Of a stretch of 64,000 nucleotides of DNA, positions 60,763 through 64,000 are shown piece after piece. The notes under the pieces are model-generated. The model had not been told where the DNA came from. It saw nothing but the letters and a program-made list of their open reading frames with translations, and made no database searches. The DNA is from a virus (taxonomy: Duplodnaviria > Caudoviricetes): the IMG/VR virus record IMGVR_UViG_3300020264_000005, positions 30,961 to 94,960 of that record; one strand, 5' to 3'. The translations under genes were made by a program, and so were the position numbers. The first letter of the stretch is position 1; each line of letters opens with the position of its first letter.

Positions 60763-61797
60763 ATGAAAGTAGGAATGATCGGACTAGGACGGATGGGTGA
60801 AGGAATGTCCCGTCGTCTAATTGCAGCAGGACATGAAGTACATGGATATCGTAACAATTATAAGAAAGCAGAAGAACAATTTGAAGCGGGTTATATCAGT
60901 GGATGTACCACTTCTCTGGAAAATCTTGTTCAAGTAGTACATCAAAACAAAACAACTGGAAAGACGCCAGGCGTCTTTTGTATGGTTGTACCAGCAGAAA
61001 CAGTAGAGGACACACTCAATGAGCTATTACAGTTTTGTGTGGAAGGAGATATTATTATTGATCATGGCAATAGCAATTTTAAAGACTCTCGCAGAAGGGC
61101 AGAGAGACTTGAAAAATTGGGCATCCAATATATTGACTGTGGTACTAGTGGTGGTGTTTACGGCTTGGAGCGTGGATACTGTCTTATGGTTGGCGGCAGA
61201 GGTGGCGCAGTCGCCGCTTGTGCGCCTATCTTCAATGCCCTCAGTTCAGGAATATCTGCCGCAGATAGGACCCGCCCTGGAGACTACGTTACACCTGCTG
61301 AGTTAGGTTGGTTACACTGTGGTGACGCTGGTGCAGGTCACTTTGTAAAAATGGTTCACAACGGTATCGAATATGGAATCATGCAAGCATACGCAGAAGG
61401 ATTTAATATCCTGCATGAAGCTAATGCTGGCGCAGCATACGTTGCTGCAGGTGATGCAGAAGTTGCTCCTATGGCTTGTCCAGAAGATTATCAGTATGAC
61501 ATCAACGTTGCTGAAGTGGCTGAGTGTTGGCGTCGTGGTAGCGTGGTTGGTTCTTGGTTACTTGACCTTACCGCTGATGTTCTACGCGGCGATAGAGAAC
61601 TTAGCAAGTTCGATGGAGGAGTATCAGACTCTGGTGAGGGTCGTTGGACTGTTCACAGTGCTGTGGATCTCGGTGTTCCAGCCCCTGTTATTACTACTGC
61701 TCTCTACTCAAGATTTGAAAGCAGAAGACTTGGACGATTTGCGAACAAAGTCTTAAATGGAATGCGGGCAATGTTTGGAGGTCACGATGTTAGGTAA
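60763..61797 (+). CDS. gnd: 6-phosphogluconate dehydrogenase (short form)
   Basis: GMIGLGRMG, IDHGNS, GTSGG, GHFVKMVHNGIEY, DSGEGRW, FGGH. Confidence 0.97.
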   Translation: MKVGMIGLGRMGEGMSRRLIAAGHEVHGYRNNYKKAEEQFEAGYISGCTTSLENLVQVVHQNKTTGKTPGVFCMVVPAETVEDTLNELLQFCVEGDIIIDHGNSNFKDSRRRAERLEKLGIQYIDCGTSGGVYGLERGYCLMVGGRGGAVAACAPIFNALSSGISAADRTRPGDYVTPAELGWLHCGDAGAGHFVKMVHNGIEYGIMQAYAEGFNILHEANAGAAYVAAGDAEVAPMACPEDYQYDINVAEVAECWRRGSVVGSWLLDLTADVLRGDRELSKFDGGVSDSGEGRWTVHSAVDLGVPAPVITTALYSRFESRRLGRFANKVLNGMRAMFGGHDVR

Positions 61798-61915
61798 TGT
61801 ACTATTATGGATATCAATACCCTTTGTATGTGCCACCATCACATTTGGACGACTTAAAGGCGAAAATAATTACTACGAATCTGAGAACTATAATGGAAAC
61901 GGAACCGCTCACTAA
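61787..61915 (+). CDS. ndhP: NDH-1 small subunit NdhP homologue, 42 aa
   Basis: Manual translation MLGNVLLWISIPFVCATITFGRLKGENNYYESENYNGNGTAH: one TM helix plus an NdhP-type tail; GGAGG SD. Confidence 0.75.
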   Translation: MLGNVLLWISIPFVCATITFGRLKGENNYYESENYNGNGTAH

Positions 61916-63230
61916 AGGCATTGTTATATTTGGTGCAACAGGAGATCTATGTAAGAAGAAACTAATTCCTGCTTTACATAAACTCTGGCAGAAAGGACTT
62001 CTCCCAGATAATTTTTTAGTTACTGGTTGTGCTAGGAGAGATCCTGGCGCTCAGATTTGGAAAGAATCTTTAGGTGATTATCCTGAAGACTTTTTGCACC
62101 ATTTAGATTATGTCTGTGCAGATCTGGATAATGTAGATTCACTGCATAATATTCCATCATACTTAGACGACATTACATATTTTTTATCTGTTCCACCAGA
62201 GAGGTATGCAAATGCAATTGCCAATCTTAAAGAAGCTGGAAAACTGGATGACCCAGATCACTCCAGAGTGGTTATCGAAAAACCCTTTGGACACGACTAT
62301 AAATCTGCTGATCATTTACAGTCAGTGGTGGAGCGACATCTACGCGAGAAACAAGTCTATCGCATTGACCATTATCTTGGTAAAGATACTGTTAATAACA
62401 TCCTTACCACTCGCTTTAGCAATATTCTGCTGGAACCTTTATGGAACCGCAATTTTATAGAAGAGATTCAGATCTTTGCATCAGAGACTATCGGATGTGA
62501 AGGTCGCTCACAATACTATGAGACTGCTGGTGCTGTACGCGACATGCTACAGAATCATATTCTACAAGTCCTTGCTCTAATAGCAATGGATGCTCCTAGT
62601 AAAATGAATGCTAGGGAAATCAGACGTGAGAAGACAAAAGTCCTCGCGGCAACTAGACTATCACAGAACATTATACTAGGACAATACGATGGCTACCGTT
62701 CTGAAGAGGGTGTTGATACTCACAGTGGTACTCCTACCTATTTCGCTGGCACTTTATTCGTCGATAACTGGCGTTGGGAGGGAGTTCCTTTTAACGTCAT
62801 GACTGGCAAGAAACTACCATATCAATGTGTAGAGGTAGTTATCAAGTTGAAGACACCACCACTTCATCTGTATGAAGGAGAAACTGGAGATCGTATTGTT
62901 ATACGTTTACAACCTGATCCTCATCTAGATATTAGGATCGACATGAAAACGCCAGGTCTTGGTGATGGAGTTGAGTTAGCAACTCTAACACATTCATATC
63001 CACAGGAGAGAGCGATTGATGGATACGAGAAACTTCTCTATGATGCTATCGAGGGAGACCAGTCTCACTTCGTACATGCTGAAGAAGTTATGGAAAGTTG
63101 GAGGATTGTAGATGACCTTCTGTGTACTGGTGATAGTTGCCCAATTCGCACTGTCCCTTATCTCTACTGTGGCGGGTGGGGTCCACACCACAAAACAGAT
63201 TTCATAACTAAGTGGGATTATCCATCATGA
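61893..63230 (+). CDS. zwf: glucose-6-phosphate dehydrogenase
   Basis: GATGDL, EKPFG, RIDHYLGK, RDMLQNH, RWEGVPF; start moved to ATG 61893. Confidence 0.95.
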   Translation: METEPLTKGIVIFGATGDLCKKKLIPALHKLWQKGLLPDNFLVTGCARRDPGAQIWKESLGDYPEDFLHHLDYVCADLDNVDSLHNIPSYLDDITYFLSVPPERYANAIANLKEAGKLDDPDHSRVVIEKPFGHDYKSADHLQSVVERHLREKQVYRIDHYLGKDTVNNILTTRFSNILLEPLWNRNFIEEIQIFASETIGCEGRSQYYETAGAVRDMLQNHILQVLALIAMDAPSKMNAREIRREKTKVLAATRLSQNIILGQYDGYRSEEGVDTHSGTPTYFAGTLFVDNWRWEGVPFNVMTGKKLPYQCVEVVIKLKTPPLHLYEGETGDRIVIRLQPDPHLDIRIDMKTPGLGDGVELATLTHSYPQERAIDGYEKLLYDAIEGDQSHFVHAEEVMESWRIVDDLLCTGDSCPIRTVPYLYCGGWGPHHKTDFITKWDYPS

Positions 63231-63382
63231 GTTTAGACAGACGCCATGGTCCACTCAGTAAAAAAGAAGTGGAAGAACACAAAGAACTACGAAAGAAGTT
63301 ATACGAACGTATTAAACAACTTCGTATGACGGAGTATATTGATGATGATGAAGAACCAGAAATATTCTTGGACGTAGCATGA
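63227..63382 (+). CDS. hypothetical protein, 51 aa (MSLDRRHGPLSKKE...)
   Basis: ATGA-coupled on both sides. Confidence 0.65.
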   Translation: MSLDRRHGPLSKKEVEEHKELRKKLYERIKQLRMTEYIDDDEEPEIFLDVA

Positions 63383-63567
63383 TACTAGAGTTTGCTAGAT
63401 TTTGTGGAAGAACATTGAACAATCCATGGGCATGTGGTTTCATGGCATGGTGTCTTGTGTTCGTTCCCATACTTGGTATGTGGGCAGTTCATAAATATGG
63501 ATGGGAACACTGGGAACCATTCGGTAAAAAACATGTACCGAGAACCACACCTGCAGAAAAAGAGTGA
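63379..63567 (+). CDS. small membrane protein
   Basis: LVFVPILGMWAVHKYGWEHWEPF. Confidence 0.75.
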   Translation: MILEFARFCGRTLNNPWACGFMAWCLVFVPILGMWAVHKYGWEHWEPFGKKHVPRTTPAEKE

Positions 63568-63759
63568 TGAATGTGCTCGCCTATGGAGGGAGTGGCATAG
63601 CTTGTGGCGAAAAAAGCATTAGGTGCGCCAGAAGCTAGAAGAGCATGGTGCGATTGTTGTGATGAGTTCAGTATAATGTGTCATCACGAGGCAAAGACCA
63701 ACCCTAGATATAAAGACTTGAAAATGTATTGGAATGAACCTCCTCCTCCGCCCCCTTGA
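63533..63759 (+). CDS. small protein probably made by -1 frameshift (29-aa short form, 75-aa long form)
   Basis: 0-frame 63533-63622; A_AAA_AAG at 63610-63616; -1 frame open to TGA 63757-63759. Confidence 0.55.
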
Positions 63760-63901
63760 GAATAATAACGACCCCGTTTGGAGTGTGATCTTCTCGATCA
63801 TGCTACTCCTAGCGGGGGTTTTTTATGTCGTCTACTATATACTTGGTATTGACGCAAGAGAGGCGCAAGAACATGGGAGCGATGACACCCCCGAGTCGTA
63901 A
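63734..63901 (+). CDS. small membrane protein, 55 aa (MNLLLRPLENNNDPVWSV...)
   Basis: Manual translation; single TM helix. Confidence 0.7.
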   Translation: MNLLLRPLENNNDPVWSVIFSIMLLLAGVFYVVYYILGIDAREAQEHGSDDTPES

Positions 63902-64000
63902 GAGTTGTTACAACTTTCGCGTAGTATCGATAGATAAAGTGTTGGACGGAGATACCATCGATGTCACAATTGATCTCGGTTTTGACCTTTATAAAAAAGA
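63873..64000 (+). CDS. SNase/thermonuclease-like protein (truncated by window end)
   Basis: MGAMTPPSRKSCYNFRVVSIDKVLDGDTIDVTIDLGFD; DGDT motif. Confidence 0.8.
   Translation, partial: MGAMTPPSRKSCYNFRVVSIDKVLDGDTIDVTIDLGFDLYKK

Follow-up and report, generated by a model that had tools for sequence, protein, structure and literature searches.

The window, as the whole 64,000-nucleotide stretch of DNA analysed here will be called, ends in an auxiliary metabolic island of the kind carried by T4-like cyanophages, in which gnd and zwf are followed by two short genes, the small split gene that is the subject of this analysis, a 55-aa ORF and, last in the island, the start of a nuclease-like gene (Table 1). 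Window position 64000 is also the end of the 94,960-base IMG/VR record (estimated 49% complete), and genes past 63825 are cut off by that end, from which the split gene lies ~240-470 nt away.

The first part of the gene, ORFa, ends in CGA AAA AAG CAT TAG, which places the heptamer A_AAA_AAG in X_XXY_YYZ phase. The -1 frame (codons at 63610, 63613, 63616 and onwards) is open from just 5' of the heptamer to the TGA at 63757-63759, and a product read across both frames would be 75 aa long, join(63533..63616, 63616..63756). A preliminary description of this DNA had placed an in-frame A_AAA_AAG one codon before the ORFa stop, a Shine-Dalgarno (SD)-like GGAGGGAG at unusually long spacing upstream of it and a hairpin downstream of it, and had the -1 frame filling the gap to the next gene. 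All of this was recovered: the heptamer occupies 63610-63616, GGAGGGAG lies at 63585-63592, 17 nt away, a hairpin with its main stem at 63624-63630 / 63646-63652 is the predicted minimum free energy (MFE) fold of 63617-63660, and the -1 frame, open to 63759, even extends by its final 26 nt into the next ORF (63734-63901).

Table 1. Features of the split gene and its neighbours, in window coordinates.
Feature	Coordinates	Strand	Remarks
gnd	60763-61797		
zwf	61797-63230		
51-aa ORF	63227-63382		
Preceding gene, 62 aa	63379-63567	+	PHROG 1184 / T4-GC 922 (GC922)
ORFa, zero frame, 29 codons + TAG	63533..63622	+	motif M/V-YRE.HLQKKS.EC..LW.EW; N-terminal helix
SD-like GGAGGGAG, including AGGGAG	63585..63592	+	17 nt 5' of heptamer, 11 nt 5' of GTG 63604
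GTG, -1 frame	63604..63606	+	6 nt 5' of heptamer; possible start, 51-aa product
Slippery heptamer A_AAA_AAG	63610..63616	+	CGA AAA AAG (63608-63616)
-1-frame part, 47 codons (ALGAPEAR...NPRY...) + TGA	63616..63759	+	helix 2 and tail
Zero-frame stop TAG	63620..63622	+	one codon past heptamer
Predicted hairpin	63624..63652	+	7-bp stem, internal loop, 3-bp stem, 5-nt loop; starts 7 nt 3' of heptamer
55-aa ORF, 3' of the split gene	63734-63901		T4-GC 647 in Syn19; MNLLLRPL..NDPVW...

Gene neighbourhood

The ATG of ORFa lies inside the preceding gene (63379-63567), with a 35-nt overlap in a different frame. This overlap is kept wherever GC922 precedes ORFa, as in Syn19, S-CAM22, S-BM3, S-H25 and many IMG/VR contigs, which suggests translational coupling or a dual-coding constraint at this point. 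In other phages ORFa stands behind different genes and retains its own start, with at least five different upstream contexts recorded.

On the 3' side, a strong terminator-like hairpin is seen within the 55-aa ORF (63771-63826; ACCCCGTTTGGAGT ... ACTCCTAGCGGGG, then a T run). The frameshifted protein carries a Pro-rich tail (NEPPPPPP) only where this 55-aa ORF/hairpin element follows, and relatives in which petE is the next gene are without it; conservation of the tail may thus reflect the overlapping element and not the protein. In many cyanophages the gene, whether frameshifted or continuous, stands directly 5' of the plastocyanin gene (petE), often with PTOX next; the loci concerned are L046 (1501-2557), L053-L058, L047, L050, L006, L008, L009, L039 and L041. 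In S-SCSM2R PTOX comes directly after the gene, and in the lineage of the window the gene is placed after zwf. No tRNA genes were found in the window with ARAGORN, and the only tRNA of the phage record is a tRNA-Asn, so that there is no phage tRNA-Lys to consider. An Rfam search at E <= 1 gave no match across 63000-64000.

Conservation of the frame break and the heptamer

Related loci were collected with the downstream (-1) peptide as the sole query, which leaves the outcome unbiased as to ORFa and the heptamer. Matches to this peptide were obtained by tblastn in 48 isolate records, and a pattern scan of IMG/VR supplied 28 further loci. Sixteen isolate loci were retrieved, one of which, S-SCSM2R, is single-frame and was handled apart; the remaining 15, together with the window and the 28 loci from IMG/VR, form the frameshifted set of 44 loci (37 distinct sequences). 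The isolates belong to nine genera of Kyanoviridae, namely Pontusvirus, Alisovirus, Anaposvirus, Charybdisvirus, Tefnutvirus, Scyllavirus, Gibbetvirus, Nilusvirus and Yushanluvirus.

Whether related cyanophages retain the break and the heptamer had been named in the preliminary description as a point to check, and they do so without exception: the ORFa peptide, the -1 peptide, the frame break between them and an in-phase A_AAA_AAG are present in 44/44 loci. The ORFa consensus is M/V-YRE.HLQKKS.EC..LW.EW..L..KK, and the second peptide, KKALGAP.AR..WC.C..E......NPRY, is always in the -1 frame. ORFa starts with ATG in 23 and with GTG in 14 of the 37 distinct sequences. The zero-frame stop is found one codon 3' of the heptamer in 38/44 loci, and in the other six TGG occupies the stop position and the zero frame is 17-19 codons longer.

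The codons that make up the heptamer are invariant at synonymous sites (CGA 23/23, AAA 37/37, AAG 37/37), and the codon before the Lys pair may be CGA, GAA, ATA, TTA or CAA (R, E, I, L or Q), its third base being always A. Synonymous sites that flank the heptamer do vary, with Glu as GAA in 19 and GAG in 18 sequences, Ala in three codons, Leu in five and one Arg in four. From these alignments the heptamer is conserved beyond what the amino acids require, and more than by chance. Nei-Gojobori estimates for the 37 distinct sequences gave pN/pS values, for frames 0 and -1 respectively, of 0.35 and 1.32 over the 57 nt 5' of the heptamer and of 1.20 and 0.28 over the 102 nt 3' of it; the frame under purifying selection at the protein level thus changes at the heptamer, from 0 to -1.

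In some relatives a second in-phase heptamer is seen earlier in ORFa, as CAA AAA AAG (Q-K-K-S) or ATA AAA AAC (N-I-K-N), at L003:500-620 (S-CAM1), L047 (S-SCSM1) and L007 (S-IOM18), and in S-CAM1 no stop interrupts the -1 frame between the earlier heptamer and the second part. This earlier heptamer is probably a chance occurrence in an A-rich gene.

Continuous homologues

The two parts are found within a single 74-aa ORF in S-SCSM2R (L040:502-726), which is without the heptamer. When this protein was used as a query, 197 matches were obtained, the best 120 of which are continuous, at 63-77 aa and 84-100% query coverage, and the same protein occurs as one continuous ORF in at least 120 metagenomic clusters and seven isolates (S-SCSM2R and six others). 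A tblastn search with a continuous homologue matched 11 isolate records in one piece and ~41 in two pieces that lie in different frames. Translated across both frames, the products of all 37 frameshifted loci can be aligned end to end with the continuous proteins, in the case of P0096 free of gaps, and P0096 encodes the homologous Q-K-K as CAA AAG AAA, which is non-slippery. This full-length homology to a separate continuous clade shows the two parts to be a single protein.

Maximum-likelihood phylogeny placed the continuous forms in one starred clade (97/99) with all frameshifted forms outside it, the sole exception being S-PRM1, which sits on a very long branch. With this tree, the frameshift could have arisen once or been lost once. 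The pS of the frameshifted set, ~0.64-0.69, is near saturation, and, whichever state is ancestral, the frameshifted state is old, having persisted through the divergence of many genera. It had been held earlier that continuous ORFs among the homologues would speak against a programmed event; such ORFs do exist, but they form this separate, well-supported clade and are not close relatives that would expose an error.

Candidate stimulatory elements

The SD-like GGAGGGAG occurs in exact form in 29/37 distinct relatives, and it is probably functional, since its codons are invariant at synonymous sites (AGG 29/29, for an amino acid with six codons, and GAG 33/33). Within it stands AGGGAG, the SD-like hexamer of dnaX. 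GGAGGGAG ends 17 nt from the heptamer, outside the ~8-14 nt expected of an internal SD stimulator, and the stimulatory spacing in E. coli is given as 8-11 nt (PMC6321510). The S-IOM18 group is without it. Continuous homologues that carry WREW encode its Arg-Glu as CGA GAA, CGC GAG or AGG GAG, and the idea of GGAGGGAG as a clean mark of frameshifted forms was rejected, as the octamer is also found in two of four continuous WREW lineages.

The hairpin of the window (63617-63660) has an MFE of -12.6 kcal/mol and a z-score of -2.1 against shuffled sequences. When ten sequences were folded, a hairpin 7-9 nt 3' of the heptamer, built on an invariant UGGUG strand, was predicted in most of them in differing registers; their z-scores ranged from -4.7 to +0.9, and two were no more stable than shuffles (-0.17 and +0.86). 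Across the relatives pairing holds in 74% of cells, with weak covariation. The consensus given by RNAalifold, which includes a stem that begins at the final heptamer base, had a weak energy of -3.6 kcal/mol and was not adopted.

The comparison with signals of the dnaX/IS type that had been drawn from this one sequence stands for the heptamer, which is firmly supported, but less so for its companions, with the SD-like element 17 nt away and the hairpin variable and showing little covariation. A contribution of GGAGGGAG, of the nearby zero-frame stop and of the downstream hairpin to the shift is plausible.

Proposed mechanism and alternative explanations

The split is kept in 44 loci and single-frame relatives encode the same protein, from which it is most likely that ribosomes shift back by one base to make the whole protein. 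On these comparative grounds we consider it probable, at about 80%, that one small gene is expressed here through a programmed -1 ribosomal frameshift. Ribosomes would start at ATG 63533 and translate 28 codons, until two Lys-tRNAs stand on AAA AAG (63611-63616), where a fraction would slip one base back onto AAA AAA (63610-63615). The slipped ribosomes would resume at GCA 63616 and read to the TGA at 63757-63759, giving a 75-aa protein that, by homology to a modelled relative, is predicted to be a two-helix hairpin, while those that do not slip would terminate at TAG 63620-63622, which leaves a 29-aa peptide of helix 1 alone. Products of 29 and 75 aa had already been proposed for this gene, and the conserved break, the frame-switching selection and the full-length homology to continuous ORFs all argue for the frameshift that would yield them.

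A split gene with two separate peptides would offer a different account, in which the second part starts at GTG 63604, with GGAGGGAG as a ribosome-binding site 11 nt 5' of it, or by reinitiation after TAG 63620, and the two helices associate non-covalently. An ATG or GTG 6 nt 5' of the heptamer is present in 26/37 distinct relatives as well as in the window, the spacing of GGAGGGAG is workable for GTG 63604 and the motif is invariant at synonymous sites, and GenBank records that annotate the second part place its start at or 5' of this -6 codon. The -6 start is missing, however, in 11/37 distinct relatives, seven of which still keep GGAGGGAG. In three of the frameshifted loci, L018, L030 and L042 (Sf-CH1b), the -1 frame reads TGA AAA AAA GCA TTA and holds no ATG, GTG or TTG until mid-ORF, and yet their ALGAP...WC.CC segment is conserved despite the lack of any usable start. 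With three such lineages independent initiation is not the general mechanism; moreover, it would leave unexplained why A_AAA_AAG is invariant and why the codon ahead of the Lys pair has an A as its third base throughout, and the -1 frame 5' of the heptamer shows no selection at the protein level (pN/pS 1.32). The independent start at GTG 63604 that the preliminary description had allowed for could thus be used in the window, and such starts may add a minor product in some phages, but as an explanation of the gene in general it is highly unlikely.

The same 75-aa product could be reached at the level of RNA, if the host RNA polymerase were to add one A in the A6 run by transcriptional slippage, so that A7 mRNAs encode the protein in a single frame. 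A homopolymer does stand at the site (six A residues, and seven where the codon before the Lys pair is GAA or CAA), one inserted A is equivalent to a -1 ribosomal shift, and the contig-level read data are compatible with rare, low-level A7 transcripts. Efficient transcriptional slippage in bacteria takes place on runs of about 8-9 or more, and the run at this site is shorter; in the 37 sequences it never exceeds 7 A, though AAA AAA AAG would be easily reached, the sole RNA-library unitig across the site has A6, and a zero-frame stop one codon 3' (38/44 loci) with a hairpin 7-8 nt 3' suits a ribosomal signal better. Slippage by the polymerase is, in our estimation, likewise highly unlikely, and slightly more so than the split gene. 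The absence of any programming, with the break due either to faulty sequencing or to a frameshift mutation that inactivates a gene in decay, is almost certainly not the case. Homopolymers such as the one at the break are prone to errors and mutations, and there are many continuous homologues, but an identical break is found in 44 independently sequenced loci from nine genera, and both halves are under purifying selection in their own frames (pN/pS 0.35 and 0.28, at a pS of ~0.64-0.69). A homopolymer error, raised earlier as a matter for the reads, was likewise not borne out, as 63489-63632 is spanned, with no indel and the same A6, by unitigs that come from three DNA studies and from one metatranscriptome library; this read check concerns contigs (unitigs) only and says nothing on rare A7 transcripts or on the level of expression.

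Protein product and annotation

The continuous homologue P0096 was modelled with AlphaFold2 from a 68-sequence alignment as a hairpin of two helices (helix 5-26, loop 27-31, helix 32-56; mean pLDDT 84.5), and the shift site maps to the loop that connects them. The family-invariant residues, H6 and C14 on the ORFa side and W39 and C42 on the -1 side, are all retained in the frameshifted clade. The -1 part matches PHROG 8483 at E = 1.1e-30, as does the continuous S-SCSM2R protein at E = 7e-17, and ORFa alone has no match to a PHROG or Pfam family. Only sub-threshold noise was obtained from Pfam for both parts and for a continuous homologue, and matches among the PHROGs are only to families without assigned function. 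When the AlphaFold model was compared with the PDB by Foldseek, only generic helical hairpins were found (best E = 0.78), and the ESM Atlas gave no informative cluster (scores <=0.78). CP12, a small Cys protein of cyanophage metabolic islands, was considered and rejected, with no Pfam CP12 match at E <= 1.

Orthologues of the -1 part are Syn19_111 and SSM2_234 (annotated as T4-GC 972), within PHROG 8483 / T4-GC 972, a family whose existing models and annotations cover the second part only, often with a spurious N-terminal extension in the -1 frame. None of the 16 frameshift-type GenBank records carries an annotation of ORFa or a ribosomal-slippage join. In S-BM3, Sf-CH11, S-IOM18, S-H25, Sf-CH1b and QB2 (GenBank; among L004, L005, L007, L010, L042, L044 and others) no CDS is given over the second part, and in Syn19, S-CAM1, S-RSM4 and S-H9-1 it is started at upstream codons of the -1 frame. 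Since the upstream -1 frame shows no coding selection, the annotated N-terminal extensions, such as that of Syn19_111, are not coding. Recognition of the frameshift restores a full-length protein that is widely distributed in marine cyanomyoviruses and that these 16 records now give as a truncated fragment, as one with a wrong extension, or not at all.

His6, Cys14 and Cys42, together with the petE and PTOX neighbours, are hints of a metal or redox role linked to photosynthetic electron transport. A speculative and rather unlikely extension of this is that the frameshift controls the dosage of a helical hairpin with metal or redox activity that is linked to the phage plastocyanin, with the 29-aa helix 1 as its competitor or partner and the efficiency of the shift setting their ratio. 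If this were so, a single site, present in the trans-frame protein only, would be built from His6 and Cys14, which are encoded before the shift, and Cys42, which is encoded after it, shift efficiency would perhaps be sensitive to the translational state of the host during infection, and the continuous sister clade would have lost, or never gained, such control.

Relation to known frameshift systems

One well-known gene with the identical heptamer is E. coli dnaX (tau/gamma), which also has an AGGGAG-containing upstream element and a hairpin a few nt downstream, and which makes two products in a set ratio from one gene, as is proposed here. In dnaX the SD-like element stands at a spacing of 10 nt, as opposed to 17 nt in the window, and the outcome of the shift is reversed: the shifted frame of dnaX stops almost immediately and gives the shorter gamma, whereas here it is the unshifted frame that stops, after one codon, and the shift that would give the longer, full-length protein. 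The predicted cyanophage hairpin is also weaker than that of dnaX and is not conserved in detail, and the gene family and host (a marine cyanobacterium) are unrelated.

The architecture resembles that of the IS3/IS1 transposases, such as IS911 orfA-orfB, where A_AAA_AAG lies in the overlap of two ORFs and the upstream ORF stops soon after, and where the functional, full-length protein is made by fusion of the two frames, with a short N-terminal protein coming from the zero frame. These frameshifts usually have an internal SD-like element and a structure downstream as well. Unlike the IS elements, the cyanophage gene is not a mobile element; its 75-aa product is a predicted helical hairpin with no match to transposases or DNA-binding proteins, and its overlap is ~13 nt. 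The tail assembly chaperones of the lambda G/GT type are likewise a conserved phage -1 frameshift, recognised mainly by comparative genomics, that yields two proteins with a common N-terminus, but the present gene lies in a metabolic island (zwf and gnd, or petE/PTOX in relatives) and not in a tail module, its heptamer differs, and a sister clade encodes the same protein with no shift.

Judged from sequence comparison, the signal is of the dnaX/IS3 type, and it is the gene family, the host and the genomic setting that are new. No report of this frameshift was found in the full-text literature searched, nor was any cyanophage report of a natural A_AAA_AAG frameshift read by cyanobacterial ribosomes. 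The gene provides a well-supported case of recoding outside phage tail and capsid genes, and would represent a natural A_AAA_AAG frameshift on cyanobacterial ribosomes. With the frameshifted and continuous clades side by side, it also invites the question of what a frameshift may add to a protein that can be made without one, for example a fixed ratio of one-helix to two-helix product.
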